A DNA stretch of 64,000 nt from Minisyncoccota bacterium (GCA_041663045.1 JBAZRH010000002.1:7179-71178); one strand, 5' to 3'; counted from the stretch's first letter, positions 11,050 to 63,565 are shown. Numbers and translations are program-made. Notes: generated by a model from the letters alone, not told the origin.

Positions 11050-11165
11050 TTTGTTCCGGCGACTAGCTACTTTTCCCACCGAAGTGAGTATCATTGCCTC
11101 AACAGGGCTTAACTTCTGAGTTCGGAATGAGATCAGGTGTGACCCCTGCGACGAATCACCAGAAC
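11050..11165 (-). rRNA. rrf: 5S ribosomal RNA
   Basis: The reverse complement contains cacctgatctcattccgaactcagaagttaagccc, matching the universal 5S CCGAACTCAGAAGTGAAAC region. Length is about 115 nt. Confidence 0.85.
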
Positions 11166-11254
11166 AAAATATTCGAATATTGTGAAAAATTAATCTCACA
11201 TAACAGGTTAAAACAATTGTGTATTTCTAAATTTCCTAATAAGAATCGGATAAT

Positions 11255-14800
<3,546 letters not shown>

Positions 14801-15113
14801 TAGGAAATTTAAAAACCACAATTATTCATCCGCCTACAAGACGGACAAATTTGTTTTAACCTGTTATGTAAAATCAATCGCGCAAAATGAATTATAAATA
14901 ATTCATCGCCCGACTCGTCACATAAACAGTATTTATATCTAACTATTTTCTTCAAGAAAAATAATTAGACTTACCTGCCTGTCTATAATATCTATAAAAG
15001 ACCCAAATCACCCTCTGGTGATAAATTGGTGATATTACGACAGCATGTGTCTCGATTAGAATGGTTATTTTATAACCTTTTTCTAACGAGAGTTATTTGT
15101 CAATTTACAATCT

Positions 15114-15391: not shown

Positions 15392-15988
15392 TTATTCAAG
15401 TATTCCATCTAAATTCACATCATAGAGAATAGCATCCTGAATATGTTTATATTTAATTATTTCACTGTCTTTAAACCACAGATTTATCTCCCCTTTAGCT
15501 TCTTCTACATTTCCAGATGCATGGATCAGATTTCTTATCGCCCTGTCGTCTATGTCAGCTATCTGATATGAATCCAAGACAAAATCTCCCCTTATTGTAC
15601 CGACATCTGATGTGAGTGGCTCTGTCCCACCAACTATTTTTCGGACAATGCCCACAGCATGTGCTCCCTGCCAGACCATAGTGATAATTGGACCACTGGT
15701 AAAATACCTTACTAATCTTTCAAGAACCTTCTCTCCAATTACAATAGGATCAGTTGAAGGAGGAGTTATCCCCTTTTTAATATAGCCGGCAATAGATTTC
15801 TCTCCGACTTTTCTGATCCATTCCGGATCTAATGTATAATGTTTTCTGGCTAGATCTTTTGTCGGAACAAGCATCTTCACAGCGACGAGCTTAAGGCCTA
15901 TTCTTTCGAATCTTCCTACAATCTCTCCAACTAATGTCCTCTGGATTCCATCTGGTTTTATAATAACGAAAGTTTTTTCTGTTCTCAT
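15392..15988 (-). CDS. ndk: Nucleoside diphosphate kinase
   Basis: TFVIIKPDGIQRTLVGEIVGRFE..GLKLVAVKML, NLIHASG and the active-site His region. Slightly longer than canonical NDK. Confidence 0.8.
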   Translation of the reverse strand: MRTEKTFVIIKPDGIQRTLVGEIVGRFERIGLKLVAVKMLVPTKDLARKHYTLDPEWIRKVGEKSIAGYIKKGITPPSTDPIVIGEKVLERLVRYFTSGPIITMVWQGAHAVGIVRKIVGGTEPLTSDVGTIRGDFVLDSYQIADIDDRAIRNLIHASGNVEEAKGEINLWFKDSEIIKYKHIQDAILYDVNLDGILE

Positions 15989-19627: not shown

Positions 19628-20395
19628 TTATAGTTTTGTAATTATTTCCGCACCCTTGCTTGTCACTACTACAGTATGTTCAAAGTGGGCGCTCCTACTC
19701 CCATCTTTTGTTTTATATGTCCATCCGTCGTCCGCAAGAATAATCTCTTTTCCTCCCATATTAAACATCGGCTCTATTGCTATCACCATACCTGATTTGA
19801 GCTTGTCACCAGAACCTCTTTCTCCGTAATTCGGAATGTATGGATCCTCGTGAACCTCATAACCAACACCGTGCCCACACAAATCTTCTACCACTCCATA
19901 TCCATTTGCTTTTGCTATCCTTTCTACTGTAAAACCAATATCACCAGTGTATTTGTCCGCCTTGATAGTCTTGATACCAGCATAAAGTGCTAATTTCGTA
20001 GCATCTAAAAGTTTTTGAGATTCAACGTCAATCTTTCCAACCGGCACAGTTATAGCTGAGTCCGTAATAAGACCTTTGTGAGTAAGTCCCATATCAAGAG
20101 ATACAATATCTCCTTCTTTTAAAATTCTAGGGTTTTCATTTGGTATACCATGTACAATCTCGTCATTTATGGAGACACAAATAGACGCTGGATACGGCCG
20201 CATACCCTTTGGTTTGTAATTTAAAAAAGCAGCCTTATCGCCATTATCAGAAACCAATTTTTCAGCCAAAGTATTTAGCTCGGCTGTAGAAACGCCTGGT
20301 TTTACTATCTTAGCAACTTCTTGCAATATCAAAGCCAAACGCCTACCACCCTCGCGTAATATCTCTATTTCATCCTTGGTTTTGATTGTTACCAT
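19628..20395 (-). CDS. map: Methionine aminopeptidase type I
   Basis: Metal-ligand motifs: DIVSLDMG, HGIPNE, CGHGVGYEVHEDP, VIAIEPM. Confidence 0.85.
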   Translation of the reverse strand: MVTIKTKDEIEILREGGRRLALILQEVAKIVKPGVSTAELNTLAEKLVSDNGDKAAFLNYKPKGMRPYPASICVSINDEIVHGIPNENPRILKEGDIVSLDMGLTHKGLITDSAITVPVGKIDVESQKLLDATKLALYAGIKTIKADKYTGDIGFTVERIAKANGYGVVEDLCGHGVGYEVHEDPYIPNYGERGSGDKLKSGMVIAIEPMFNMGGKEIILADDGWTYKTKDGSRSAHFEHTVVVTSKGAEIITKL

Positions 20396-20476: not shown

Positions 20477-23140
20477 TTATATTTTCTTACTTTTTTCTCT
20501 CACTACCGCTTGTGCTGCAGCAAGTCTTGCAATCGGCACTCTGAAAGGTGAGCAAGAAACATATGAGAATCCTTCTCTATGACAGAATTCTACCGTCCTT
20601 GGTTCACCACCGTGTTCTCCACAAATTCCAATTTTCAAATCTTTCTTCACTCCGCGTCCTTTCTTTATGGCTATGCGGATAAGTTCGCCAATACCTTCTT
20701 GGTCGAGGACTTCAAAAGGATCATAGGCAAAAATATCTTGAGCAACATATTCTTTCAAAAACTTTCCGGCATCATCTCTTGAAAGTCCGGCTCCCATTTG
20801 CGTAAGATCATTTGTTCCAAATGAGAAGAACTCTGCTCCAGATTCCACTATCTTGTCGGCAATAAGGGCAGCTCTTGGAACTTCTATCATTGTTCCAACT
20901 TTATAATCTATCTTAATTTTTGCCTCTTTAATCTTGCTCTCAACAATATTTACTATTCTATCTCTCAAAATAGTATATTCTTTTGTTGTCGCAACTATCG
21001 GAATCATTATCTCCGGAATAACGGATTTCACTTTCTTACCATTTATACCTTTCTTAACCTCTATTGCGGCATCGATGATCGCTGTCGCTTGCATATCATA
21101 AATTTCTGGATATGTAATAGCAAGTCTGCAACCTCTGTGCCCAAGCATTGGGTTGAATTCGTGCAAGTCTTCTATCTTTGCTTCCAATGTCTTCACATCG
21201 ACTTTCATTTCTTTTGAAAGCTCTTCAATATCTTTCTTTTCTTTCGGTAGGAATTCGTGAAGTGGTGCATCTAGAAGTCTAATTGTGACAGAATATCCAT
21301 CCATAGCGCGAAATAGTCCGGCGAAATCTCCTTTTTGATATGGAGCGAGTTTTGCCAAAGCTTTTTGCCTCGCCGGTAGATCTGAAGCCAAAATCATTTC
21401 TCTGACTGCTTTGATACGGGCACCTTCAAAAAACATATGCTCTGTTCTGCAAAGACCGATGCCTTCTGCACCGAATTTTCTCGCGACTTCTGCGTCGTGC
21501 GGAGTGTCGGCATTTGTCCTCACACCTATTTTTCTGAACTTATCCGACCATGACATGAGCGTTCCAAAATTTCCGGAAAGTGATGGGTCTTGTGTGCCGA
21601 GCTTACCCGCATAAACCTTTCCTGTGGAACCATCAAGGGAAATAAATCCTCCTTCTTTTATAACAATCCCTTTATTTTTTATCGTCAGAGTTTTTGCTTT
21701 TTCATTAATAATGATATCCGAGCAACCAGCCACACAGCATGTGCCCATACCTCTTGCGACGACAGCTGCGTGAGATGTCATACCGCCTCTTGCTGTCAAG
21801 ATACCTTTTGAAGAATGCATACCGTCTATATCTTCCGGTGATGTTTCTGTACGAACCAAAATAACATCAAGTCCGGATTTAGCTTTTGCAAATGCTTCCG
21901 AAGCTGTAAAAACAACTTCTCCGACAGCCGCGCCAGGAGATGCAGGAAGACCTTGTGCAATCACTTCCGCTTTGTCTCTTGCAATAGGATCGAGCTGTTT
22001 GTGCAGAAGCTGATTTAGCTGATTTGGATCAATTCTTAATATCGCTTGTTCTAGAGTAATGAGCTTTTCTTTTACCAAATCAACGGCGATACGGACAGAA
22101 GCGGCGGCGGTTCTCTTACCATTTCTCGCTTGCAGTATGTAAAGCTTGCCTTGCTGTATAGTGAATTCCATATCCTGCATATCTTTATAATGCTTTTCAA
22201 CTTTATTGCAGACATTTACAAGCTCTTTGTAAATCGCCGGGTTTTGTTTTGCCAAAGCTGAAACAGGAAGCGGTGTCCTTATACCAGCGACCACATCTTC
22301 GCCTTGCGCATTCATCAGATATTCTCCGTAGAATTTTGCTTCTCCTGTAGAAGGATTTCTCGTGAAGCAGACACCTGTGCCTGAATCATCACCCAAGTTT
22401 CCGAAGACCATGGCTTGTATATTTACAGCAGTTCCGATAAGGCCTTTGATATTATTTATTTCTCTGTATCTTATAGCTCTATAGTTATTCCATGAATTAA
22501 AAACAGCATTTATAGATAGATACATTTGCTTAATAGGATCTTGTGGAAAATCGACACCTTTCACTGCTTTGATTTTAGCTTTGTATTTTTTGACGATTTC
22601 TTTCAAGTCTTCGGCCGTCAAATCTGTGTCGTATTTGGCACCCTTTGTGTCTTTTACATTTTCTAAAATGTGCTCAAAATCGGAATGTTCCATTTCCATA
22701 ACAACGCTTCCAAACATTTGCATAAGTCTTCTGTATGAATCCCAAGCAAAACGGGCATTGCCGGTCTTTTTTACCAAACCTTCAACAGATTTGTCATTCA
22801 AACCAAGGTTTAAAATAGTGTCCATCATACCAGGCATGGAAGATGCTGCTCCCGAACGAACGGATACGAGAAGAGGATCGCTGGCGTCCCCAAGCTTCTT
22901 GCCCATTTTCTTTTCCAACTCTGCAAGCTTGATATCTGTCTGCTTCTTTATTTCATTGTTTATCTTCTTGCCGTCTTCATAATAAAGTCTGCATGATTCG
23001 GTTGTAATAGTAAAACCCGGAGGGACATTGATACCCAAACTTTTCATCTCTGCTAAGTTTGCTCCCTTACCACCCAGAATCTCTTTCATATCCCTATTTC
23101 CCTCTTCAAACGAATAAACGAATTTTTTGTTCTTTGCCAT
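20477..23140 (-). CDS. ppdK: Pyruvate, phosphate dikinase
   Basis: 887 aa. N-terminal ATP-grasp (LGGKGANLAEM), central phospho-His region GGMTSHAAVVARGMG, and C-terminal PEP-utilising TIM barrel. Confidence 0.85.
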   Translation of the reverse strand: MAKNKKFVYSFEEGNRDMKEILGGKGANLAEMKSLGINVPPGFTITTESCRLYYEDGKKINNEIKKQTDIKLAELEKKMGKKLGDASDPLLVSVRSGAASSMPGMMDTILNLGLNDKSVEGLVKKTGNARFAWDSYRRLMQMFGSVVMEMEHSDFEHILENVKDTKGAKYDTDLTAEDLKEIVKKYKAKIKAVKGVDFPQDPIKQMYLSINAVFNSWNNYRAIRYREINNIKGLIGTAVNIQAMVFGNLGDDSGTGVCFTRNPSTGEAKFYGEYLMNAQGEDVVAGIRTPLPVSALAKQNPAIYKELVNVCNKVEKHYKDMQDMEFTIQQGKLYILQARNGKRTAAASVRIAVDLVKEKLITLEQAILRIDPNQLNQLLHKQLDPIARDKAEVIAQGLPASPGAAVGEVVFTASEAFAKAKSGLDVILVRTETSPEDIDGMHSSKGILTARGGMTSHAAVVARGMGTCCVAGCSDIIINEKAKTLTIKNKGIVIKEGGFISLDGSTGKVYAGKLGTQDPSLSGNFGTLMSWSDKFRKIGVRTNADTPHDAEVARKFGAEGIGLCRTEHMFFEGARIKAVREMILASDLPARQKALAKLAPYQKGDFAGLFRAMDGYSVTIRLLDAPLHEFLPKEKKDIEELSKEMKVDVKTLEAKIEDLHEFNPMLGHRGCRLAITYPEIYDMQATAIIDAAIEVKKGINGKKVKSVIPEIMIPIVATTKEYTILRDRIVNIVESKIKEAKIKIDYKVGTMIEVPRAALIADKIVESGAEFFSFGTNDLTQMGAGLSRDDAGKFLKEYVAQDIFAYDPFEVLDQEGIGELIRIAIKKGRGVKKDLKIGICGEHGGEPRTVEFCHREGFSYVSCSPFRVPIARLAAAQAVVREKSKKI

Positions 23141-23316: not shown

Positions 23317-23940
23317 TTATCCCAAAACCTTCTCTATCAACTCTTTGTGAACTGCTTCTATAGTCTGCTCGCCATTTATGTCGAACACTTGGCAATCTTT
23401 ATCCTTATTGAAGAAATCTATGCAAGGTAAGACATCTTTCTCAAACCAAGACATTCTCTTATCAATACCCTCTGCAGTATCATCTTTTCTTCCTCTTGCT
23501 GTAAGTCTATCTGTACACCATTTCCTGCTTGTATTTATATAAATTACTTTATAATTTGGAATACCATAAAACTTCAACATAGCGTCAAGCAACTCTGCTT
23601 CATAAACTATTCTTGGTGCTCCATCAAAAAGCAAATTTTCTTTGCCGGAAAAATTCTTGACAAGATAATTTACCCAGAGGTCTAGAGCCATAGCTCCTGG
23701 CATAAGACCTCCTGATTCTACAACCTTTTTTGACAGAGATTGAGTATAAGAGTCTCCTTTTATAAACTCTCTGAAAAAAGCCCCCGTTTCAATATGTAGT
23801 ATTTTTGAGCCAGTTCTTTCTCCGAGAGACTTCTTAAATAACTCAACCTGTGTACCCTTACCACAACCTGATCTACCAATAAAAATAAAAGCCATCGGCT
23901 CGGCTTTTTTATCTTCCTTATTTTTAAATATATTCAACAT
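23317..23940 (-). CDS. adk: Adenylate kinase (divergent P-loop GRSGCGKGTQ)
   Basis: P-loop, LID-like RLTARGRKDDTAEGI segment, and conserved position after secY in the ribosomal cluster. Confidence 0.65.
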   Translation of the reverse strand: MLNIFKNKEDKKAEPMAFIFIGRSGCGKGTQVELFKKSLGERTGSKILHIETGAFFREFIKGDSYTQSLSKKVVESGGLMPGAMALDLWVNYLVKNFSGKENLLFDGAPRIVYEAELLDAMLKFYGIPNYKVIYINTSRKWCTDRLTARGRKDDTAEGIDKRMSWFEKDVLPCIDFFNKDKDCQVFDINGEQTIEAVHKELIEKVLG

Positions 23941-28303: not shown

Positions 28304-29782
28304 CTATGGAGATACCGCACACTGACTAGTACCCGAGTCACAAAAGTTAGAAGCACAACTTGCATTATTGAAACAATAAGCACCTATAGCTCCATCAGTA
28401 CATACGTAATCGGCACTACCTCCGCAATATAGATTTGATTGACAATCGCTTGTCTGTGTACATACACCTCCTAAGGGTACGAGGGCTGCGGCACAAACGC
28501 TACCACTACAGTTTTCTGATTGACATTGATTATTGGCAGAGCAGGAACCTCCGACTGGTTTGAATCCTCGGGTATAAATATCTAATATCTCGTCTGCGGT
28601 GAGGGCGCGGGACCAGATGGCAATATCGGCCATACTACCGGTGAGATACCCACTGAAACTCCCTGGATTTCCAGCAACTCCAAAATGGATTACTCCAGTA
28701 TAAGTCGTGGCTACTGTTTGATTTACTGTCTCTATAAATACTCCGTCAAGATAAACATCCATGTGTTGGTTGTCTCGATAATTTACTGAAATAAGGTGCC
28801 ATGTATTATCCGACATATTTGGATGCGTGCTTATTGCAGAACACGAAACCCACACTTTACAAATCACTGCTTGGAGAGTACTGCCCGTGTAAGATATACC
28901 AGATTGAAGACTCCCGCTACTGGCTGGATTGTAAAAACCGAGCAAATTAGTGTTAGCGACAGAAAGACTGCTTTTATTGAACCAAAAACTAACGGAGTGA
29001 CTGTTAGCTGAAGAAAGAGATACCTGGCTTGAATCAAAAACACTTGTCCCATCAAAACTCCCCGCCTGTGCACCATTGAAACCGTTTGTATATGTCCCTG
29101 TCCACGTCCCATCATTGCCATTCCCCGATGAATCTGTGGAATCTCCATTTAGCTTCCACCAACCTACAAGAGCAGGATCGGTGTAGGGATCAATATATGT
29201 CCCTGCCACTCCCATATATGTTGTCCCTGAGTTGATATTGGCTGCATTTAGAGTTGCTTTGAATGCTACCAGGGCATCATAGATTTCTGTAATGGAGTAC
29301 ATAGTAGCGTTGACTGCATTACTTGTGGTAAGGGTATGGGAGGAGGAAAGGACTCTGGTATAGGGTGATACTGCAAGGTTGTAAATGTCTGCTAGAGAGT
29401 AGCCTGTGGCTGTACCTTGGTCTGTGGTGGGGTAGAGAGAAGAGGAGGAAGCAGAGACTGTCGTAGGAACAGCATCGCCTGATGTTATACCTAAGTAAGT
29501 AGTGCCTGATTTAATATTGTTGGGATTTATGAGATTGGCTAAGAGAGCGTAGATTTCTCCAATAGAGTGGGAGGTAGTAGCTGTAGCTTCTGTAGTAGTA
29601 GAGAGTGTGTGATTACCTGCTGTGGCTTCAGTACCTGCGGTTAATATATTGTAGAGGTCGTTGAGAGTGTAAGATGTGGGAAGGGGGGTGGCAGAAGGGG
29701 TGAGAGAGCCAGCTATAACTACGACAGTGAGAATACCGAGGGAGAAGAGAGTATAAAGAAGTGTACGTTTAAATTTAGGCAT
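28304..29782 (-). CDS. Secreted/membrane-anchored LamG (concanavalin-A-like lectin) domain protein with Cys-rich C-terminal repeats, inserted inside the ribosomal-protein operon
   Basis: N-terminal hydrophobic anchor, three IY-repeat motifs, and a LamG signature LVGWWKLNGDSTDSSGNGNDGTWTG...FDGTS...SFWF...MADIAIWSRALTADEI. The C-terminus carries 14 Cys in C-x5-C-x3-C-type spacing. Confidence 0.7.
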   Translation of the reverse strand: MPKFKRTLLYTLFSLGILTVVVIAGSLTPSATPLPTSYTLNDLYNILTAGTEATAGNHTLSTTTEATATTSHSIGEIYALLANLINPNNIKSGTTYLGITSGDAVPTTVSASSSSLYPTTDQGTATGYSLADIYNLAVSPYTRVLSSSHTLTTSNAVNATMYSITEIYDALVAFKATLNAANINSGTTYMGVAGTYIDPYTDPALVGWWKLNGDSTDSSGNGNDGTWTGTYTNGFNGAQAGSFDGTSVFDSSQVSLSSANSHSVSFWFNKSSLSVANTNLLGFYNPASSGSLQSGISYTGSTLQAVICKVWVSCSAISTHPNMSDNTWHLISVNYRDNQHMDVYLDGVFIETVNQTVATTYTGVIHFGVAGNPGSFSGYLTGSMADIAIWSRALTADEILDIYTRGFKPVGGSCSANNQCQSENCSGSVCAAALVPLGGVCTQTSDCQSNLYCGGSADYVCTDGAIGAYCFNNASCASNFCDSGTSQCAVSP

Positions 29783-53812: not shown

Positions 53813-55732
53813 TTATTTCACCACCTTACCAGAATCTGAAGAATATTCCGGGTCACTCTTTGTGCCTGTCGTAACTGTCGCTCCATCTGCCCCAACTATA
53901 GTATTCGTAAATGTGTCAGTACCACTAAGCTCCACATTTTCTATAAGAGAAGGTTCACTTCCTACCTGACTCAAGCTTGGCGTTATAGAAACATTAAACG
54001 AAACTTCTCGTGAAGGAGATGTAAATCCCGCCCCAGCACCAATGTTTCCTATATTCCATATCACTCGCCCACTCTCTTGATCAAAAGATATATCTTCAGA
54101 AGATGGACTCGTCAGATTGTTCCATTTGATATAGTTTGGAAGTTGTCCTGTTACTTTCACACCACCAACGTCATTCAAAGAGTCCGTAACTGTCCAAATA
54201 ATAGTATAAGTTGTCTCTTGTTCAGCTTTCGGCGGGATAGGACCACTGTTTTCAAAAGGCCCCATCGATCTATACCCATTTGATACGATTCTTATGTCTG
54301 AGATTATTTTTACCCTCTTTGAATCAGAATACAGGAGCTCTTGTGGGACGCTCGCCCCCTGCACTCTCTTGCCTATTACACTTACATCCATGTAAATATC
54401 TGGGTTGGTAAAAGCAGATCCTGTCTTTGTCTGAGAGCTAAAAGAAGAGAAATTAAAAGATAATTCCCCCCCTGCCCCAGGAGCAATAGACGCCAGTGAT
54501 TCATTTGATGTTTTATCAAAAGTAATTAAATTATCAAGAGAATTATAAAAACCGTTTTGAACTTGAATGCTCGATTTATTCAATATGCCCCCTCTTAGCT
54601 TTATCTGAACAGAGACATCATATACTTGGCTTGGAAGATTGTTCTGCCAATAGATGTCTGCACGTGTTTGCTGACCGCTTTGTATTGCTACTTCTCGAGC
54701 ATTGTTTCCATTTATGGCAAGATTTATACCAATAAACGGTTTCTTGATTGAAACAGTACTTGAATACGCAGAAAATATAGTACCTATACTTCTCGTATCC
54801 AACTTGTCTGGCGTCCCTACAGTAAACTTAAATACTCTCTGTTCACCATCTTGGCCCTGAACCTTTCCAGATATCTTTACTATCCTTTTTTCACCTGGAG
54901 AAAGATCGCCAATATTCCAAACACTACTATCAAGTGAAGATGCTTGTGGAGAAGCAGATATAAAATCAAAACCAAAAGGATAGTCTGCCTTGAGCATCAA
55001 GTTTTTTATCACACTGAGAGAATTTGAGGAAATTTCAACATTAAAATCAAGCTTTTGATTTGAATTTATCTCATCAACACCGGTAACTTTCAAATTTACA
55101 GGAGCAGAACTTACGAGCACTGTGTATGTCTTTTCTTTATAGAAAATCGCATTTGAACCAGGGACTCTGTATTCAACAGTAAGTTTTATATCTCTTTGTG
55201 TATTTTCTTCACCAAAAATAACAGCTTTTATCAACCGCCTCTCGCTCTTACCGACATTTATATCGCCGAGAACTTCGCTGTATCTTGTGAGTGGAGTTGA
55301 AAGATCATCGGGGCTTCTCGTACCGTCTGGATATGCGATTTTTAAATCGACAACCTGAAGATTTACATTATTTTTGTTTTGAACTTCAATATCAAGAGGT
55401 AAGGTATCACCACCGGCGACAGAGACAGGGCCTCTTATCAGAATATCTATATTGTCCCCAGATATTAGATTACCACCAGCAAAAAATTTAAATGTGGCAA
55501 AACCAGCCGCCAGTACAAAGAAAATAAAGGTACCGAGAAGAATCTTAGTAAAAGGAAATTTAAAGTCTGACTCTTTATTCAGATCAGTGTTAGACCAATC
55601 AGTACTGACTCTTTCTATTCTTGGCTTCAAATCATGCCTTCTCTTGGCGACTACAGCGTCTACGTTTTGAGAATAAAGAGCTTCTTTTACCTCCTCTATC
55701 TTGTCTTTTTTATTTTCATCTTGCTCAAACAT
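53813..55732 (-). CDS. Hypothetical large membrane-anchored extracytoplasmic protein
   Basis: 639 aa with one TM helix near residue 65 and a beta-rich remainder. Confidence 0.4.
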   Translation of the reverse strand: MFEQDENKKDKIEEVKEALYSQNVDAVVAKRRHDLKPRIERVSTDWSNTDLNKESDFKFPFTKILLGTFIFFVLAAGFATFKFFAGGNLISGDNIDILIRGPVSVAGGDTLPLDIEVQNKNNVNLQVVDLKIAYPDGTRSPDDLSTPLTRYSEVLGDINVGKSERRLIKAVIFGEENTQRDIKLTVEYRVPGSNAIFYKEKTYTVLVSSAPVNLKVTGVDEINSNQKLDFNVEISSNSLSVIKNLMLKADYPFGFDFISASPQASSLDSSVWNIGDLSPGEKRIVKISGKVQGQDGEQRVFKFTVGTPDKLDTRSIGTIFSAYSSTVSIKKPFIGINLAINGNNAREVAIQSGQQTRADIYWQNNLPSQVYDVSVQIKLRGGILNKSSIQVQNGFYNSLDNLITFDKTSNESLASIAPGAGGELSFNFSSFSSQTKTGSAFTNPDIYMDVSVIGKRVQGASVPQELLYSDSKRVKIISDIRIVSNGYRSMGPFENSGPIPPKAEQETTYTIIWTVTDSLNDVGGVKVTGQLPNYIKWNNLTSPSSEDISFDQESGRVIWNIGNIGAGAGFTSPSREVSFNVSITPSLSQVGSEPSLIENVELSGTDTFTNTIVGADGATVTTGTKSDPEYSSDSGKVVK

Positions 55733-55764: not shown

Positions 55765-56349
55765 TCAAAGGTGGGTTTCCTTGAGTGCCCTGTTTATTTC
55801 TGACACAGCTATTTTGTTCTTGGATGAAAAGTCAGAAAGTATTTCAGGAGTTAAATTCGTACCTTCTGCAAAACTAGTCAACCCTTCGGCTTTTTTTATG
55901 TATCCAAGGAAATGCATTATCCTCAAAACTGTCAGAGTTTCGACACTCTTCAACTCATCTGGAGAAAGGTCGGCATCTCGGCATAAAATATAAGCAGATT
56001 CTACACATTCAAAAAGTCTTTCATTTTTTTCTTCACCGTGAACGAGGCGTAAGAGTAGAGCAGATGCATTGAAAAGCACAGTGAGCTTGCCTTTATTTTT
56101 TATAACACCATTTTGCACTATCGCCTCGGCGTTTGTAATACGCCAAAGGTCTTTGCCTTTTACCACAGAAACTTTCGTCAGTGAAAAGACCTGCAAATGC
56201 CCCTTAAGTTTTGATTTTGCTAGTCGTACGCCTTGAGCCGTCGCTTTTATAAAACCCAAATCTCGTGTAAGCAAAAAATACAAGCGATTCGCCTCCCCCA
56301 TCGGTATACTTCGGACGATTATGGCCTCGGTGGTGTAGATATGGTGCAT
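55765..56349 (-). CDS. recO: DNA repair protein RecO (short form)
   Basis: N-terminal OB fold TEAIIVRSIPMGEANRLYFLLTRDLGFIKATAQGVRLAKSKLKGHLQVFS. Confidence 0.55.
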   Translation of the reverse strand: MHHIYTTEAIIVRSIPMGEANRLYFLLTRDLGFIKATAQGVRLAKSKLKGHLQVFSLTKVSVVKGKDLWRITNAEAIVQNGVIKNKGKLTVLFNASALLLRLVHGEEKNERLFECVESAYILCRDADLSPDELKSVETLTVLRIMHFLGYIKKAEGLTSFAEGTNLTPEILSDFSSKNKIAVSEINRALKETHL

Positions 56350-56512: not shown

Positions 56513-57274
56513 TCAAACCTTCTTCACCGCAAGGAATGAATGAGTTAGACCAATACCCAGTTTAGTTGCGACAAAATCAATTGGATACAGGCTAGGGCTC
56601 ATATCTGGGTTATTCCCCACAACCGCAGTAACAACATTAATAGGGCTTACCGTGTTCTCAGGAGGAAGCACAATGACTCTCCTCCCGACGCCATCGATTT
56701 TGGGGAAGTGGTACCTCATCAGATCGGTGCTATTTAACCAAATCCCAAAAGAACAAAACTGTCTCAACGATGGTGCCTTGTATCCCATACTTCGAATCGT
56801 GCTAAGTGTGAGTCCAAATGGCATGTCTTTCCAGAAGCGAATAATCCCAAATGTCGCCTCTTTACTACCATCATCAGATTCTTCGCAAAGAATCTTTCTT
56901 ACCCCAGAAACATTCATACAGTGCATACTAACACTCATACTAGTGTTCCGTCCCACAGCGAACAGTGCATCCACATCATATTCGGGAGTGTCAATTTGCA
57001 CAGTCTCAATAGACGGTGGGGTTTTCTCAACCATCTGAAGGGCAATACTGCTGAAGATTTCGTCCTGTTGATCCTGTGTTAAAGATCCAACAAGGAGTAA
57101 AACCTCTGGTGGAAGATTATTTCTCTCAAATGCTCTGACAAGGCAAGAGATGACATCTGCTCCACAACCATTTCCAAGCCTCATGGCTTCAAACAATGCC
57201 CTCTGACCACCGATTCTGATTATTTTCTGATACGTGGACATAGCTCGCTCCTTTCTTATGTACCAACCCCTCAC
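56513..57274 (-). CDS. Hypothetical protein, GC-elevated
   Basis: The probable start is the internal MSTYQKI. No recognised domain. Confidence 0.35.
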   Translation of the reverse strand: MRGWYIRKERAMSTYQKIIRIGGQRALFEAMRLGNGCGADVISCLVRAFERNNLPPEVLLLVGSLTQDQQDEIFSSIALQMVEKTPPSIETVQIDTPEYDVDALFAVGRNTSMSVSMHCMNVSGVRKILCEESDDGSKEATFGIIRFWKDMPFGLTLSTIRSMGYKAPSLRQFCSFGIWLNSTDLMRYHFPKIDGVGRRVIVLPPENTVSPINVVTAVVGNNPDMSPSLYPIDFVATKLGIGLTHSFLAVKKV

Positions 57275-57449: not shown

Positions 57450-60400
57450 TTAATTTATCTTAATCGTCATCTTCATTCCCTCTATCACCACTTCCTTTCC
57501 ATCTTTTACTTCCCCAAATTTTATATCTTTCAGCCCTGTGACTTTTTTTATTTCAGCCGAATATTTTTCCAAAATCTTCTTGCCAACTTCATCTGTATCT
57601 ACAACAAGCCCGACAATATCATTAGGATTCAATTTACTTTCTTTTCTCAATTCTTGTATCGAGCGGACAATATCTCTCATCATTCCTTCTTCTTTTAGCT
57701 CTGGGGTAATATTCGTATCAAGTTCGAAGGGTGCTCCATCTTGTGATATGTTTTCATCTAGAACAACTTCTTTAACATTTACTTCGTCTCTTATTATAGG
57801 AGATACTTCATCCCAGAAATTAGGTTTTTTTAAAGAGTGTTTAATTGTTAGTCTAGCCAGAGGCTGGCGAACTTTTATTCCAAGCTCTGCACGTTTCATT
57901 AATGCCATATTGACATAGCTTCTCGCCAGGCTCATCGTGGCGAGAATATCTTTCTCTTCTTGAGAAAGCTCCACCACATACTCCTCCGGCCAGCTGTCCA
58001 AATGCACACTGAGCTTTTCACCGCCGATTTTTTTATACAAATCTTCCGCCAAAAACGGCATCGATGGTGCAATAAGCTTCGACAATGTAAGTATCACTTC
58101 TTTCGTGGTCGCTATTGCCGAATCTCGGTCTGCTAAATCATCTGACTTGAATCTATCGCGTGATCTCCTCAAATACCACGTCGAAAGGTCTTCCACAAAA
58201 TCATTTATCGGCCAAGTGGCTCTATCAAGCTCGTATTTTTCGGTAGAATTCGTCATTTGCAAAGCTGTCTCTTTCAATCTCGCCAAAACCCATTTATCCA
58301 AGATATTTTTTGTCTCTTGTTTTTCGCTTTTCGTTTTTCGTTTTTCGTTTTCTGTGTACATCTCATAGAAAGAATAAACATTTTGCAATCTCATTATCAC
58401 TTTCTTCACCACTTCATCCACGCCTTTGTCCGAAAAATACAAATCCTGCGCCTTTATAACCGGCGAGGAAAGTAAATAATATCTCATGGCATCGGCACTG
58501 TATTTGTCCACAAGAAGCATCGGAGCTGTATAATTCTTTAATCTCTTGGCCATCTTTTGACCATCCTCTGCAAGCACAATACCGTTTACCACCACATTTT
58601 TATATGAAGCTTCGCCAAAAAGCGCGACAGAAAGCACGAGCATAGAGTAAAACCATCCTCTTGTCTGATCAAGACCTTCAGCGATGAAATCTGCTGGATA
58701 TCCAATACCCTTTTCCGGATTAAACTTTTTCAAATCACCAAATGGATAATGCGATTCTGCATAAGGCATCGAGCCCGACTCAAACCAGCAATCAAAAACT
58801 TCCGGTATGCGACGCATTTTGTCTCCGCAAGCGCAAGCCATTTCCAATTCATCTATAAACGGTCTGTGCAAATCCAATTCATGATTCCTATTGTGCGGAA
58901 TCGGGGCAAATTGCAATTCTTTCACTTCACCATTGTATACAAAAGGCTTGCCTGCTTCTCTTACCGCCATCAATTCTTTTGGTGTCATACCCACCGCTCC
59001 ACCAAACATAAGCCAAATAGGAGTATTATGGGAAACTATCAAGATTTTCTTTCCTTCATGCTTCTGATTTATTTCATATAAGAAATCCGTCATCCTCTTT
59101 TTGACTGCCATATAATTCTCTCCCCCTTCCGGTGTTTTCCAAAACTTCGCTTCACGCGATTCGAAAAATGCCTGATATTCCGCATCCGGTTTACCGTCAA
59201 GCACTCCCACAAATATTTCATGTAGACGAGAGTCATAAACAATTTTATCTTTTGAATATCCAATACCGTCGGCGATGATCTCTGCAGTTTCTTTTGTTCT
59301 CAAAAATGGAGAGCAATATATAATATCGATATCGGTCTTAGATTTCTTCAGATTTTCTCCCGCTTCCTTCGCCTGTTCTCTGCCATTGTCCGTAAGATGA
59401 TGCTGGGTCTTTGGATTTGAACTCAAAATTCCCAAGACATTGCTTTCCGCCTCGCCGTGTCTTACAACAAAAAATCTATTATCTCTTGTCGTTTTCTTTT
59501 TTATATCATCTATCGAGCCGACAAATATTTTACCTTCGCATTTATTACATCTCCATACAGGGAGCGGTGCGCCCCAGAATCTTGAACGAGAGATTGCCCA
59601 GTCGCGAGCGCCTTCAAGCCATTTGCCGAATCTCCCCTCACCGATTTCGGGTGGAACCCACTTTATTTCCTGATTAGCTTTTATCAAATCACTTTTTATC
59701 TTTGTAACTTCCACAAACCAAGAGCTCGAAGCGTAATTTATGAGCGGAGTGTCGCATCTATAGCAATGCGGATATGAATGCGTGAATTTTTCTTTCGAGA
59801 AAATCGTCCCCGCTTTTGCAAGATATTTTATAATTTCAATATCGGCTTTTTGCGGATCTTCTTTTGGTTTCACTTGTCCGGAAAAATCTTTGACTTCATG
59901 CTTAAATGCACCGTCCATACCAACATGCTGAATAAAGGGAAGTTTCTTTTCCCTACCAAGATTCATATCGTCTTCACCAAAAGCTGGAGCAATGTGCACG
60001 ATACCCGTGCCGTCTTCTGTCGTCACAAAATCCGCTCCGTAAACTTTGAAACCGTTTTCTTTATTTTTTAATTTATCATTATTGTAATAATCAAAAAGAG
60101 GTTTGTAAGATTTGCCGACAAGTTTTTTACCAGAAACTTTTTCTAGTATCTCGTAAGGTTCTTTGATTATTCCAAGCCTGGATTCCGCGAGAATATAATT
60201 CTCCTCACCCATTTTTATCTTCACATATTCTATATCTGGATTCACCGCCAAAGCGACATTTCCCGGCAAAGTCCAAGGGGTGGTCGTCCAAGCCAAAAAG
60301 AAGGTTTGGGGCTCGTCTAGAAGCTCAAATTTGGCCGTCACAGAGATGTCGGTGATATCCTTGTATCCTTGACTGACTTCAAAATTCGACAGTGTTGTAC

Positions 60401-60986
60401 CGCATTGTGGGCAGAGATGCATAGATTTAAAACCCTCGTAAACTAGCCCTTTTTCTTGTAGTTTTTTGAAAGCCCACCAAACACTTTCTGTGTATGAAGA
60501 ATCCATCGTCCTGTAATCATTTTCCATATCCACAAAACGCCCCATTCTCGGAACAATTTTCTTCCAATCATTTACATAAGTAAAAACTTTTGATCGCGCA
60601 AGATCATTAAATTTCTCCAAACCAAAATCTTCAATATCTTTTCTTGATTTGAGGCCGATTTCTTCCTGAACAATATTTTCCACCGGCAATCCGTGGCAAT
60701 CCCAACCCCAACGCCTCGGCACGTGGTATCCGCGCATAGTTTTATATCTACCGACAAAGTCTTTCATCGTGCCGGCAAGAATATGTCCAAAATGTGGAAG
60801 ACCTGTGGCAAATGGAGGTCCGTCATAGAAAACATACTCGCCTTTCGGCGCTTCTTTTTCCAGAGTCTTTTCGAAAATTTTATTTTCCTGCCAGAATTTC
60901 AGGACTTCTTCTTCTTTCAATGCGAGCTTAGATTTATCACTAGCCTTTTGAGCTTTATCTTCGCCCATCGCTTTATTCACTTTCAT
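57450..60986 (-). CDS. ileS: Isoleucyl-tRNA synthetase with an inserted histidine-phosphatase (RHG / PGM-like) domain
   Basis: HIGH motif (PHFGH), KMSKS, editing domain, and Zn knuckles (CYRC, CNKC, CAC). Between CNKC and the DVWFDSG-equivalent (EVFDCWFESG) lie about 210 aa. This insert carries FVVRHGEAESN near its start and LIVSHNTPI near its end, the two catalytic-His motifs of the histidine phosphatase superfamily. Confidence 0.8.
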   Translation of the reverse strand: MKVNKAMGEDKAQKASDKSKLALKEEEVLKFWQENKIFEKTLEKEAPKGEYVFYDGPPFATGLPHFGHILAGTMKDFVGRYKTMRGYHVPRRWGWDCHGLPVENIVQEEIGLKSRKDIEDFGLEKFNDLARSKVFTYVNDWKKIVPRMGRFVDMENDYRTMDSSYTESVWWAFKKLQEKGLVYEGFKSMHLCPQCGTTLSNFEVSQGYKDITDISVTAKFELLDEPQTFFLAWTTTPWTLPGNVALAVNPDIEYVKIKMGEENYILAESRLGIIKEPYEILEKVSGKKLVGKSYKPLFDYYNNDKLKNKENGFKVYGADFVTTEDGTGIVHIAPAFGEDDMNLGREKKLPFIQHVGMDGAFKHEVKDFSGQVKPKEDPQKADIEIIKYLAKAGTIFSKEKFTHSYPHCYRCDTPLINYASSSWFVEVTKIKSDLIKANQEIKWVPPEIGEGRFGKWLEGARDWAISRSRFWGAPLPVWRCNKCEGKIFVGSIDDIKKKTTRDNRFFVVRHGEAESNVLGILSSNPKTQHHLTDNGREQAKEAGENLKKSKTDIDIIYCSPFLRTKETAEIIADGIGYSKDKIVYDSRLHEIFVGVLDGKPDAEYQAFFESREAKFWKTPEGGENYMAVKKRMTDFLYEINQKHEGKKILIVSHNTPIWLMFGGAVGMTPKELMAVREAGKPFVYNGEVKELQFAPIPHNRNHELDLHRPFIDELEMACACGDKMRRIPEVFDCWFESGSMPYAESHYPFGDLKKFNPEKGIGYPADFIAEGLDQTRGWFYSMLVLSVALFGEASYKNVVVNGIVLAEDGQKMAKRLKNYTAPMLLVDKYSADAMRYYLLSSPVIKAQDLYFSDKGVDEVVKKVIMRLQNVYSFYEMYTENEKRKTKSEKQETKNILDKWVLARLKETALQMTNSTEKYELDRATWPINDFVEDLSTWYLRRSRDRFKSDDLADRDSAIATTKEVILTLSKLIAPSMPFLAEDLYKKIGGEKLSVHLDSWPEEYVVELSQEEKDILATMSLARSYVNMALMKRAELGIKVRQPLARLTIKHSLKKPNFWDEVSPIIRDEVNVKEVVLDENISQDGAPFELDTNITPELKEEGMMRDIVRSIQELRKESKLNPNDIVGLVVDTDEVGKKILEKYSAEIKKVTGLKDIKFGEVKDGKEVVIEGMKMTIKIN

Positions 60987-61020
60987 GAATAAGATTGTAG
61001 CAGATTTTTATATAAAAAAA

Positions 61021-61047
61021 CAGCGCTTCCCTGGCGGGAAGCGCTTT
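61021..61047 (-). terminator. Intrinsic terminator (cagcgcttccc tggc gggaagcgctg + U7 on the minus strand)
   Basis: 11-bp stem followed by ttttttt, at the downstream end of the GC-rich segment. Confidence 0.65.
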
Positions 61048-61077
61048 GAAGGTAGATATTACTCTATCTTCTGATCT

Positions 61078-61580
61078 TTCTTTGGCGGAACACCCCAGTG
61101 GATGTGGCACCAAGAGAAATGTCTCTGCAGACTGCTCCTTTACCAATACGTTCTTGGAGTTGCCTCTTGAGAACACCTCTTTCTTTAAGAGACATAAATG
61201 TCGATTTCCGTCTTTTCCCTATACCCTTCATTTTCACCTCCTTATTCCGAGATACACTGACGAGGGATTTTATGAACACTCGGCGATTCCAGATGCTGGC
61301 ACTTACCTGCACGCTGGCTGGTCGTCCTAGGATTCAGTGGATGTGGTCGGAAAAAAGCATTTACAAATCCAGACCCTTTCCTGGCTTTCACCCACTTTCT
61401 GAATTCCTTGGTTCCACCGGGTGGAAACGGCTTTCGTCGCTTATTCACTCCCACTCTCCTCCAAGACAGGATTCTTCGGCATCGGAAACGCCCCTCCAGC
61501 GACCACGCCCAAATGAGGGTGGTCTTCTGGGGAATCTGCGACTTCCTCACAGACCGGCTCTTTCCCCAAGCCAAGCAATT
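61078..61580 (-). ncRNA. Candidate RNase P RNA (rnpB) or other structured RNA; GC-rich (about 50%) segment with no convincing ORF
   Basis: The minus-strand transcript contains GAGGAAGUCGCAGAUUCC (resembling P4/CR-I AGGAAAGUCCGGGCUCC) and CAGAAAGUGGGUGAAAGCCAG (resembling CR-II CAGGUAAGGGUGAAAGGGUG). The ends pair (UUGGC / GCCAA), and a strong terminator follows. Both strands carry only short overlapping ORFs. Confidence 0.35.
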
Positions 61581-61711
61581 TCATTAGCCTGTTCGTTGTA
61601 GGTCCATATTGTTTCGGCATTATTTCTCCTATTGTTTGGTTGTTTTTGTACAAATCTGTTCCTAAAAGATATTAACCCGAGAAGATATTTGTGTCAATAG
61701 TTCCGTAATAT

Positions 61712-61797
61712 TTCAATAGCTTGTCATTCCCGTGGAAACGGGAATCCAGTTCTGGCTTCTGGATCCCAGATCTAGTCTGGGATGACAGAAAAGAAAT
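61712..61797. repeat. Cloverleaf-like four-stem element, copy B
   Basis: ttgtcattcccgtggaaacgggaatccagttctggcttctggatcccagatctagtctgggatgacag has the same architecture as 48268-48345. It lies between the argS stop and the GC-rich segment. Confidence 0.5.
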
Positions 61798-61801
61798 ATG
61801 A

Positions 61802-63565
61802 CTACATCTTCTCCGGTGCCTTTATACCTAGCAGATTAAGACCATTTTTCAAAACCACAGTAAACGCTTCCGTAAGCGCCACTTTATAAGAAGAGTTTTT
61901 GTCTTCTTTATCTACTATCTTCCCTTTCGCATAAAAACCATTGAAAGACGAAGCAAGCTGTATCAAATATGTAGCAATATGATTTGGCGCATAGTCCTTC
62001 CCCGCCCTTTCCACTATTTCAGGAAATCTATAAAGCATTTTTTCTAACTCAAATATTTCGTGTCCCCTTTCTTTCGTATTTCCGGAAATTCTTTCATCCT
62101 TCGCTTTTCTCAAAACAGATTTCGCTCTGGCATATGAATATTGCAAGTATGGCCCGGAGTCCCCTTCAAAAGAAATCGATTTATCGAAATCAAAAATAAT
62201 ATCTTTTCCGGTCACCTGTTTTAATATTGAATATTTGAGAGCTCCAACCGAGACTTCTTCAGAGACTTTCTCTCTTTCTTTCTCTGACATTTCTCTCCCT
62301 TTCATCTTTTCTTTGATTGTATCCTTGATTTTATCAATCAGAGATACTGCAGTCACAACCTGACCCGTCCTTGAAGACATCTTGCCGGTCGGTAGTCTAA
62401 GCATGCCGTGAGACAAATGTACTGTCTTTACGGCCAATTCTGGGAAGACAAGACTCATTGCTTTCAATAAGACTTTGAAATATTCATTAATCTCATTGCC
62501 TGTTATGACAATTGATTTATCGTATTTAGTTTTATCATATTTAATCTTTGCAAGGCCCAACTCTTTTGCCTCATAAGTTGGAAGTCCTTCTTTGTTTATA
62601 AATACACGAGTATGTAAACCGTAATTCTCCCCTCTAAAAATTATCGCTCCGTCGCTCTTTTCAAAAACTTTCCCTATATTTTTTTCGACGATTTCTTTCC
62701 CAAAAGGACCAGTCTCACTTTCGAAGAATTTATTATCAAAACTTGTCCCTAGAATTTTATATATGTCTTCAAAGTATTCTAAACTAATCTTTCTACCCCA
62801 TTTATATACTTTATTTGCTAAAGGGTCAGATCCATCATAGATATTCTTGTTTATCTTTAAAATATCTGCTTTCGCAGCTAAGTCCCCTTCGTAAGCTTCT
62901 GCACCATACACATACGCCTCACCTAGAGATGAGGCTGAGTATTTTTTATCTGAGAATAATTTATCGATGTCTGGTTGCAAGACAATGATTCCATAAATAG
63001 CTTTGGCCACATGCAAACCCACATCACCCTGATAACAGGCACGCTTTACGTTTGCCCCGTTTGCTTCAATTATTCTTGAGACAGCCTCACCGATAGAATT
63101 ACTCATCAAGTGACCAATATGAAATTCTTTAAAGGGGTTTGGGTCAGTATACTCAACTACGATTTTCTGACTTCTCAGATCTTTATTTTTTCCGAACTTC
63201 TCACCAGATTTCAAAATCTCTTTCACACTATCCGTAAAAAAGTTTTTGGAGAGATAGAAATTTATAAAGCCCGGGTCGGCAACTTCTATTTTTTCTATTT
63301 CGGCGGGTTTCCTTTCCAAAATCTCGGCTTTGATCTTTTCGGCAAACTCACGCGGATTTTCTGCCACAGCTTTGGCAAGTATCATGGCAATATTTGAAGA
63401 ATAATCCCCATGCGAAATATCTTCCGGATGTTCCAGGTTAATTTTTGGTATCTTGCTTTCCTCTATTTGAAGCTCCCAAAGAGCCGTCTTTATAGCATTT
63501 TCCAATATATCGCGAATCATATGGGTTAATAATACGCTATTTTCCATAAAAATCCAGAATATCAT
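61802..63565 (-). CDS. argS: Arginyl-tRNA synthetase
   Basis: Class I HIGH-like FHIGHLMSN, KMSSRTG (KMSKS variant), and a DALR anticodon-binding C-terminus. Confidence 0.85.
   Translation of the reverse strand: MIFWIFMENSVLLTHMIRDILENAIKTALWELQIEESKIPKINLEHPEDISHGDYSSNIAMILAKAVAENPREFAEKIKAEILERKPAEIEKIEVADPGFINFYLSKNFFTDSVKEILKSGEKFGKNKDLRSQKIVVEYTDPNPFKEFHIGHLMSNSIGEAVSRIIEANGANVKRACYQGDVGLHVAKAIYGIIVLQPDIDKLFSDKKYSASSLGEAYVYGAEAYEGDLAAKADILKINKNIYDGSDPLANKVYKWGRKISLEYFEDIYKILGTSFDNKFFESETGPFGKEIVEKNIGKVFEKSDGAIIFRGENYGLHTRVFINKEGLPTYEAKELGLAKIKYDKTKYDKSIVITGNEINEYFKVLLKAMSLVFPELAVKTVHLSHGMLRLPTGKMSSRTGQVVTAVSLIDKIKDTIKEKMKGREMSEKEREKVSEEVSVGALKYSILKQVTGKDIIFDFDKSISFEGDSGPYLQYSYARAKSVLRKAKDERISGNTKERGHEIFELEKMLYRFPEIVERAGKDYAPNHIATYLIQLASSFNGFYAKGKIVDKEDKNSSYKVALTEAFTVVLKNGLNLLGIKAPEKM

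Follow-up and report, generated by a model that had tools for sequence, protein, structure and literature searches.

A histidine phosphatase nested in the CP3 zinc-knuckle loop of a type-2 isoleucyl-tRNA synthetase from Paceibacterota

Aminoacyl-tRNA synthetases are essential and belong to the most thoroughly studied enzymes. Class I aminoacyl-tRNA synthetases with lineage-specific inserted domains are already known, and extra domains of such enzymes usually signal extra biology such as editing, membrane anchoring or signalling. The closest precedent for the gene described here is CAAD of the cyanobacteria, which also occurs as a standalone protein and has repeatedly been captured by class I synthetases, most often by valyl-tRNA synthetase (ValRS) and also by isoleucyl-tRNA synthetase (IleRS), the capture being restricted to one lineage, using alternative insertion points and in at least one case proceeding by fusion of neighbouring genes (PMC4893482). 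The gene under study is located on the minus strand of a 64-kb stretch of DNA from a Minisyncoccota bacterium (JBAZRH010000002.1:7179-71178), the whole of which is referred to as the window, and encodes a type-2 IleRS with a histidine phosphatase domain inside it. It resembles the CAAD synthetases in its lineage-restricted and recurrent capture, its standalone form, its alternative sites and its fusion of neighbouring genes, while it differs in that CAAD has no catalytic function and serves as a membrane anchor located behind the catalytic domain, whereas the phosphatase is an enzyme with an intact active site situated inside connective peptide 3 (CP3), sometimes in tandem, in bacteria of the candidate phyla radiation (CPR).

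Among the synthetases, the proteins of type 2 (IleRS2; Priestia megaterium 8C8U, Thermus thermophilus 1ILE and MupA/MupB) share with the window protein the full set of IleRS domains and motifs, a Thermus-like CP3 zinc knuckle and the type-2 C-terminal domains, and the difference is the second enzyme domain of ~200 residues within the CP3 zinc-knuckle loop of the window protein. An IleRS with an additional enzyme domain is also represented by ileS_w_GNAT (NCBIfam NF040702, compared by its family model only), where the added domain is an N-acetyltransferase and of which the window protein is not a member (324 bits against a cut-off of 1999). As for the phosphatase, PspA/iPSP1 (4IJ5/4IJ6), PhoE/YhfR (1H2E/1EBB), CobC (6NRU/6E4B) and GpgP Rv2419c (4PZ9) have the same fold, the same RHG/Arg/Glu/His residues and a similar size (~190–210 amino acids, aa), whereas the window domain has its own signature, SH-x-x-P-[LI]-W, and belongs to a subfamily that is never free-living in its clade: its members lie within IleRS or are the product of a gene immediately ahead of ileS. 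A CobC/PhoE-like phosphatase fused to a nucleic-acid enzyme is found in RNase H/acid phosphatase (Rv2228c type, NF005567), to the phosphatase half of which the insert scores 82.5 bits, under the cut-off of 326, but that fusion is end-to-end and not nested.

The openly searchable literature (subscription-only papers lie outside it), including a 2026 survey of 96,219 IleRS sequences, yielded no account of such a phosphatase in either IleRS or ValRS, and the nested phosphatase is apparently undescribed. New in the present study are also a separate-gene form between argS and an insert-less ileS, IleRSs with two copies and ValRSs with one to four copies of the phosphatase. In current annotation pipelines such proteins are given only the name 'class I tRNA ligase family protein', which leaves the nested domain unlabelled and the specific ileS or valS name missing.

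The synthetase and its inserted phosphatase

The gene consists of a single unbroken open reading frame (ORF) of 1178 aa plus a stop codon, in agreement with the protein length given in a first-pass annotation of the window, and its product is identical to MFA6227323.1, named 'class I tRNA ligase family protein [Ca. Paceibacterota]' in the database. Pfam places tRNA-synt_1 in two stretches with His_Phos_1 between them, followed by Anticodon_1 and DUF5915, and with TIGR00392 (ileS, NCBIfam) the protein reaches 874.5 bits against an equivalog cut-off of 621.4 and thus passes as an IleRS. The type-2 organisation is seen in Anticodon_1 together with DUF5915 and in scores of ~750 bits to MupA/MupB-like models (NCBIfam), and the best match in the PDB is the IleRS2 structure 8c8u (E = 1e-219). 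Both class I signatures are present, as is the editing domain of connective peptide 1 (CP1), where WTTTPW at 233 and GTGIVH at 326 lie in invariant columns and editing-domain entries of the PDB are matched. The features of the gene are given below, all on the minus strand, with conservation taken from 113 full-length close homologues and from 52 diverse homologues (down to 38% identity).

57450–60986, minus strand: whole gene, type-2 isoleucyl-tRNA synthetase with nested histidine phosphatase (ORF, TIGR00392, identical protein MFA6227323.1)
59481–60986, minus strand: N-terminal part of the IleRS, aa 1–502, with the first Rossmann half, connective peptide (CP) core, CP1 editing domain, CP2 and the start of CP3 with the first zinc knuckle (aligned to 13–478 of 8c8u; tRNA-synt_1 at 28–504)
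60783–60794, minus strand: HIGH motif, HFGH, aa 65–68 (by motif; H68 in at least 90% of the diverse homologues)
60273–60290, minus strand: Thr-rich motif of the editing site, WTTTPW, aa 233–238 (W233 to T239 invariant in the diverse homologues)
59571–59609, minus strand: CP2-CP3 linker ARDWAISRSRFWG, aa 460–472 (by sequence and its yeast equivalent)
59538–59549, minus strand: first half of the CP3 zinc knuckle, CNKC, aa 480–483 (C480 and C483 in 113/113 close homologues and in at least 90% of the diverse ones)
58875–59480, minus strand: inserted branch-1 histidine phosphatase, aa 503–704, with the conserved C-side linker APIPHNRN (PF00300, alignment, models, Foldseek)
59454–59462, minus strand: RHG motif with R509, the nucleophile H510 and G511 (R509 and H510 invariant in both sets)
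59298–59300, minus strand: R563, second phosphate-binding arginine, in the SPFLR motif (invariant in both sets)
59217–59219, minus strand: E590, presumed general acid/base (113/113 close homologues, at least 90% of the diverse ones)
59028–59030, minus strand: H653, second catalytic histidine, in the signature SH-x-x-P-[LI]-W (invariant; signature common to the standalone forms)
57453–58874, minus strand: C-terminal part of the IleRS, aa 705–1178, with the remainder of CP3, second Rossmann half, anticodon-binding domain and type-2 C-terminal domains (aligned to 471–851 and 938–1022 of 8c8u; Anticodon_1 at 897–1043, DUF5915 at 1088–1177)
58827–58835, minus strand: second half of the CP3 zinc knuckle, CAC, aa 718–720 (motif and conservation)
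58542–58556, minus strand: KMSKS motif, KMAKR, aa 811–815 (K811 and K814 invariant in the diverse homologues)
58305–58352, minus strand: loop aa 879–894, empty here, a second insertion site in some related IleRSs (by mapping of P0176, P0195 and P0205)

The first-pass annotation had proposed that the IleRS carries an inserted histidine phosphatase, and this is borne out by Pfam, TIGR00392, the alignment and the motifs, since the cited CNKC, RHG, VSHN and DVWFDSG-equivalent (CWFESG) are all present. The profile scan called for there gave PF00300 (His_Phos_1) at aa 506–672 (E = 5.7e-37; 127.7 bits, the gathering cut-off being 21.7), covering profile positions 2–166 of 194. When six insert-less orthologues (946–981 aa) were aligned with the window protein they showed 2–7 residues where the latter has ~200 (aa ~503–704), with the zinc-knuckle cysteines preserved on both flanks, so that the boundaries relative to canonical IleRS are confirmed while the earlier figure of ~210 extra residues comes down to ~200. 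The alignment to 8c8u likewise covers residues 24–499 of the query and picks up again at ~688–700, and further motifs are found as well (RHGE 509–512, SPFLR 559–563, VSHN 651–654, DLHRP 705–709 and CWFESG 733–738).

The insert had also been described as a complete fold ending at LIVSHNTPI. Completeness is supported by the Pfam match, the conserved catalytic residues, AlphaFold and Foldseek, but in the AlphaFold models the phosphatase fold extends ~45 residues beyond the second His motif, with its last strand at 688–691. With the alignment of 52 sequences, AlphaFold2 modelled the full-length protein with a predicted local distance difference test (pLDDT) value of 90.3 and a predicted template modelling (pTM) score of 0.84, the insert region reaching 90–97, and the insert modelled alone gave a pLDDT of 88.9 and a pTM of 0.87. 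The only internal stretch of low confidence is the loop at aa 879–894 (pLDDT <50 at 884–888). Since the C-side linker APIPHNRN is conserved among close homologues and is modelled with confidence, the insertion geometry looks fixed within the clade of the window.

The location given earlier as the zinc knuckle and CP2 holds for the knuckle, while the region is named CP3 in the studies of the yeast and Candida IleRS structures (PMC7191050 and PMC7955072); one 2026 preprint assigns it to 'CP2', which makes the earlier name defensible. CP3 carries a zinc motif in Thermus IleRS and differs in topology among all solved IleRSs (PMC7191050). Immediately before CP3 the CP2-3 linker, ARDW..SR.R.WG (453-ARDWNVSRNRYWG-465 in yeast), lines the pocket for the CCA end of the tRNA (PMC7955072), and the insert of the window protein comes after this linker.

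When the alignments were inspected for the phosphatase residues, R509, H510, G511, R563, E590 and H653 were invariant among the 113 close homologues and R509, H510, R563 and H653 also among the 52 diverse ones, in which the catalytic and editing residues of the IleRS are likewise invariant. Mean column conservation in the 113 homologues is 0.71 for the insert, compared with 0.73 for the anticodon-binding domain and 0.58 for the C-terminal domains, and judged from these alignments the insert is under purifying selection. With the HIGH and KMSKS motifs, the editing site and the ligands of the zinc all kept, the synthetase half should work normally, and the protein is, as read from its sequence, a bifunctional polypeptide with two intact active sites of which the phosphatase is apparently active.

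The nearest solved proteins in sequence and fold are 21–26% identical to the insert and comprise novel-type phosphoserine phosphatases (4IJ5/4IJ6 and 5ZKK/6M1X), PhoE (1H2E/1EBB), CobC (6NRU/6E4B), GpgP (4PZ9) and a riboflavin-pathway phosphatase (9MMH). A Foldseek search with the model of the insert gave 305 PDB matches at E<=1e-3, the best 50 being all histidine phosphatases or mutases and the top ones PspA, PhoE and CobC (E 2e-13 to 1e-9, template modelling score ~0.65–0.7). The insert falls below the curated NCBIfam cut-offs for PspA (70.3 vs 350), PRK13463 (71 vs 277), CobC TIGR03162 (67.1 vs 162.9) and SixA (45.3 vs 74.5) as well as for the mutase models dPGM_arch (97.8 vs 225), PRK01295 (47.1 vs 316) and GpmB (46.9 vs 261). 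Around the catalytic Glu and the second His it reads HEIFVG and SHNTPI, which is not mutase-type; at those places E. coli GpmA has E-R-H-Y-G and H-G-N-S. A glycolytic phosphoglycerate mutase was thus rejected, the domain being below every curated cut-off and without the mutase signature. As it scores below all curated cut-offs and is without mutase-type residues, the insert is by its sequence a member of the histidine phosphatase superfamily that belongs to no characterised subfamily.

Distribution, operon form and further insertion sites

In a survey of CPR IleRSs, which the first-pass annotation had suggested, the same insert was found on a large scale. PF00300 is present in all of the 120 best-matching clusters of proteins, whose identity to the window protein ranges from 100% to 58% and which are named 'class I tRNA ligase family protein' (Candidatus Paceibacterota, Minisyncoccia) or 'isoleucyl-tRNA synthetase'. 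Among the best 80 species-level loci, each from another genome and with Paceibacterota, Taylor-, Vogel- and Zambryskibacteria and Parcubacteria as the lineages named, 80/80 have exactly one phosphatase domain, within IleRS and at the identical site, and no standalone copy was seen within 10 kb in any of them, nor is there one in the window. An exhaustive search with the insert only, against 1.84 billion representatives (50% identity), gave 14,686 matches, and of the best 150 of these 101 are in one polypeptide with a class Ia synthetase, namely 100 with an IleRS, the IleRS parts of which have diverged to ~38–40% identity, and one with a ValRS (P0140). The architecture is conserved across many uncultivated CPR species, and the partnership of phosphatase and synthetase is wider than the earlier observation on a single protein suggested.

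An assembly chimera, an intein or a functionless mobile insertion was also considered, the insert having a superficial resemblance to inteins, which likewise target conserved sites of essential genes. This is refuted by the recurrence of one in-frame architecture in 120 protein clusters and in no fewer than 80 independent genomes at species level. The insert does not differ in base composition from the remainder of the gene (guanine-cytosine content (GC) 0.405 vs 0.403, GC at third codon positions 0.378 vs 0.388), shows purifying selection, and has no Hint splicing or homing endonuclease domain in aa 503–704, where Pfam gives His_Phos_1 only. An artefact or selfish element can for all practical purposes be dismissed.

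With the phosphatase domain of a rare fusion to arginyl-tRNA synthetase (ArgRS) as query, His_Phos_1 proteins of ~190 aa were retrieved, ten of which (L081–L090) were examined in their genomic context. In 10/10 cases, from diverged lineages of related Patescibacteria, the standalone phosphatase gene is located directly upstream of an insert-less ileS of the same type and on the same strand, the spacing ranging from a 20-nucleotide (nt) overlap to ~100 nt and being <=40 nt in nine of the ten. Just upstream of these pairs argS is found, and downstream recO and a DUF11/CLIPPER protein, and the window has the same gene order, with DUF11 at 53813–55732 and the following two conserved neighbours.

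61802–63565, minus strand: argS (ArgRS, 587 aa), conserved upstream neighbour (Pfam and synteny)
55765–56349, minus strand: recO, conserved downstream neighbour that marks the orthologous ileS locus (Pfam RecO_N and synteny)

In the fused loci argS precedes ileS in 49 of the 60 that are testable and recO follows it in 58 of 63, and in ~20 related fused loci the distance between argS and ileS is <110 nt. As the argS-ileS-recO order is shared, the nested gene can be regarded as the orthologous housekeeping ileS, and the synteny supports a housekeeping role, in which the enzyme would charge tRNA-Ile and edit Val-tRNA-Ile. The signature SH-x-x-P-[LI]-W after the second catalytic His is common to the standalone and the single-copy nested forms, and in the data examined the phosphatase is found in the argS-ileS slot or in the CP3 loop, never in both. 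Over evolution the nested form and a tightly linked pair of genes can stand in for each other, and the nested phosphatase would be the in-frame form of the gene that neighbouring Patescibacteria keep as a separate ORF, often overlapping ileS, between argS and ileS.

In the window argS and ileS are separated by a gap of 815 nt (60987–61801, GC 0.45). No ORF with a family match, no Rfam match at gathering score and no similarity to related loci was found within it, and a remnant of a standalone phosphatase was rejected, the gap being without conservation or RNA family. Between ileS and recO there is an ORF of 253 aa (56513–57274, minus strand) with no Pfam or PADLOC match and no homologue in 80 related loci. 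In three of the standalone loci (L081, L083 and L084) a conserved protein of 296 aa without Pfam match is encoded just upstream of the phosphatase (~5020–5910 in L081), and this protein is absent from the window.

Some IleRSs in the metagenome collection have two phosphatase copies. In four of these (P0176, P0195, P0205 and P0229) one copy is in CP3 and the other in the loop that joins the catalytic core to the anticodon-binding domain, while two (P0134 and P0232) have both in tandem in CP3. The P-x-W signature is missing from both copies of the two-copy IleRSs. P0140 is a ValRS with four copies, and when it was used as query 71 of the 120 best ValRS matches (P0391–P0509 and P0140), by their source names from Gracilibacteria/Peregrinibacteria, were found to bear one to four. 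The main site in ValRS lies ~29 residues after DWCISRQ and before DTWFSS, in the loop homologous to the IleRS CP3 site, and a minority of copies sit upstream of DWCISRQ. In a subset of the ValRS copies the position of the catalytic Glu is taken by Gly or Ala, and an Asp follows two residues later. Since the ValRS-embedded copies separate from the IleRS-associated ones in a rough neighbour-joining tree without support values, and are without the P-x-W signature, the sequences suggest a separate recruitment of the phosphatase in ValRS.

The appended domains of synthetases are commonly non-catalytic, as in cyanobacterial CAAD (PMC4893482), and the phosphatase fold could likewise serve as a structural spacer or as an additional surface for binding tRNA or phosphate, with which the very basic nature of the standalone forms agrees. 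Over more than 100 diverged sequences, however, neither the nucleophile His nor the two Arg nor the second His varies, and the Glu hardly does, and R, H, R, E and H are intact in every copy of the multi-copy proteins examined, which makes a purely non-catalytic module hard to credit.

Fusions to other enzymes were also recovered. P0265 (689 aa) is an ArgRS with a C-terminal phosphatase that starts right after the normal ArgRS C-terminus, and P0236 (387 aa) is a TsaC/Sua5 with a C-terminal phosphatase whose nearest relatives are IleRS-linked; both phosphatases belong to the IleRS-associated subfamily. A search of the larger database did not bring up the ArgRS fusion again, and of the TsaC fusion there is a single example. 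The former is readily explained by the adjacency of argS and the phosphatase gene, and a general link to adenylate-forming enzymes, which the two fusions had raised, was weakened by their being one-offs, by this adjacency and by the IleRS-linked relatives.

Possible role of the phosphatase

We know of no step in isoleucine or valine charging that needs a phosphomonoesterase. The partnership nevertheless appears in three genetic forms (neighbouring genes, a nested domain and tandem arrays) and with two paralogous synthetases, which is a classic signature of a functional link, and we infer that phosphatase and synthetase work in association. To judge from its homologues, the phosphatase would hydrolyse a phosphomonoester via a phospho-His510 intermediate, R509, R563 and H653 holding the phosphate and E590 donating a proton. 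Selection would then have acted for making the phosphatase together with, and holding it on, a class Ia synthetase. Because the module is found in two loops of IleRS and at two points of ValRS, in up to four copies at a time or else as a neighbour translated along with the synthetase, it most probably acts on a phosphorylated species encountered there. A housekeeping type-2 IleRS with a competent nested phosphatase, most likely acting on such species, is therefore the reading we favour, with somewhat better than even confidence.

Several observations weigh against it. The nearest characterised relatives (PspA, PhoE, CobC and GpgP) act on small metabolites and not on RNA or protein. Among close ValRS relatives of identical synteny (L096–L098) some have the module and others lack it, and a standalone copy is not encoded near them; no standalone phosphatase was found beside an insert-less valS in the two cases examined, and the module is therefore dispensable, at least in ValRS. 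The genomic scope was 64 kb, so that a second IleRS or other phosphatases may be encoded elsewhere in the genome.

The same observations on metabolic relatives and on ValRS favour a serious rival, in which a metabolic phosphatase of PspA/PhoE type was by chance a neighbour of ileS in the operon and was later retained in fused form by reduced genomes, the sole benefit being co-expression or stability. All the surrounding genes are housekeeping ones and give no clue to the substrate, and the ArgRS and TsaC fusions resemble by-products of accidental adjacency. Such hitch-hiking makes it hard, on the other hand, to explain by accident an insertion in an internal loop rather than an end-to-end fusion, and leaves unexplained the second IleRS site, the tandem arrays of up to four copies and a distinct phosphatase lineage in the homologous ValRS loop of another CPR clade; the standalone gene beside ileS in 10/10 cases across diverged lineages also counts against it. 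On balance we consider it unlikely, though to be taken seriously. Should the link prove unrelated to translation, it would be an example of function bundling in reduced genomes.

Under the favoured reading of an action at the synthetase, the leading guess for the substrate, in preference to pyrophosphate (PPi), is a nucleotide or a tRNA phosphorylated at its 3' end. It is compatible with the anchoring of the domain beside the linker of the CCA pocket and with the strongly basic standalone forms (isoelectric point 9.8–10.3, net charge +8 to +14 per 100 aa, the nested copies being near neutral). The latter is weak evidence and, as a point against, confounded, since small proteins in those genomes are often basic: the standalone charge is similar to that of SmpB and IF3 of the same loci and exceeds that of the synthetases (0 to +5 per 100 aa). 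In a more specific form, the built-in phosphatase would repair tRNA by stripping a 3'-phosphate, a cyclic phosphate or a toxin-added pyrophosphate at the mouth of the synthetic site, and would have been recruited more than once by class Ia synthetases of the CPR (IleRS in Paceibacterota, ValRS in Gracilibacteria/Peregrinibacteria). This proposal is speculative and has a small chance of being right, but if true the charging enzyme would also control the quality of the tRNA end, which would be an activity new to the histidine phosphatase superfamily and, for a synthetase, a novel form of editing. Identifying the substrate could expose a new step in the tRNA or nucleotide handling of minimal-genome organisms.

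The first-pass annotation had suggested that the insert might handle pyrophosphate or phospho-intermediates or be a moonlighting module, and the products of amino acid activation offer another possible substrate. IleRS, ValRS and the rare ArgRS and TsaC partners all release PPi and adenosine monophosphate (AMP), and a phosphatase hydrolysing PPi (or AMP) would drive the reaction and keep IleRS and ValRS proofreading irreversible; extra copies would lift the local capacity, and no inorganic pyrophosphatase was seen within the window. PPi is however made by every synthetase while the module is found only on IleRS and ValRS, the ArgRS and TsaC fusions being singletons due to gene adjacency, and we know of no branch-1 histidine phosphatase that is a pyrophosphatase. 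A mild further argument comes from an enzyme encoded at the end of the ribosomal-protein/secY cluster, which turns phosphoenolpyruvate, AMP and PPi into adenosine triphosphate.

20477–23140, minus strand: pyruvate phosphate dikinase, between adk (23317–23940) and map (19628–20395)

Because this dikinase is encoded in the window, PPi and AMP are probably conserved and not wasted, and simple disposal of PPi or AMP is disfavoured as improbable.

The histidine phosphatase superfamily also contains protein phosphatases (SixA, PGAM5 and Sts), and the module might dephosphorylate the synthetase itself or a partner, for instance reversing an inactivation by HipA-like kinases, for which tethering in cis would be suitable and to which the partial match to SixA (45 bits, NCBIfam) could point. 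That score is under the cut-off of 74.5, the domain has the larger PhoE/PspA-like architecture and self-protection needs no tandem arrays. No kinase was seen in the neighbourhoods of the window gene and the standalone loci, and among the PADLOC defence models there was no match for the insert and only a 14-bit chance match for the standalone form. A protein phosphatase is thus very improbable.

Other features of the window

A match to 23S rRNA is found at 11233–14804 (minus strand), its 3572 nt exceeding the 2925-nt model by ~650 nt of insertions, and it is adjoined by a 5S gene at 11054–11163 (minus strand), while no 16S or tRNA genes were found anywhere in the window. The ribosomal protein cluster contains, between L5 and L6, an ORF of 492 aa with a Laminin_G_3 (ConA-like lectin) domain (28304–29782, minus strand), and in the 2-kb bin around it the GC skew is opposite to that of the neighbouring bins. 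A short ORF at 1330–1899 (minus strand) has a weak match, under gathering score, to the reverse transcriptase family RVT_1 and is located near an AAA_5 protein of 792 aa (2840–5218, minus strand); this may be a retroelement remnant. The nucleoside diphosphate kinase of 198 aa, encoded at 15392–15988 (minus strand), is matched by Pfam in two stretches, which suggests an internal insertion in this protein too.

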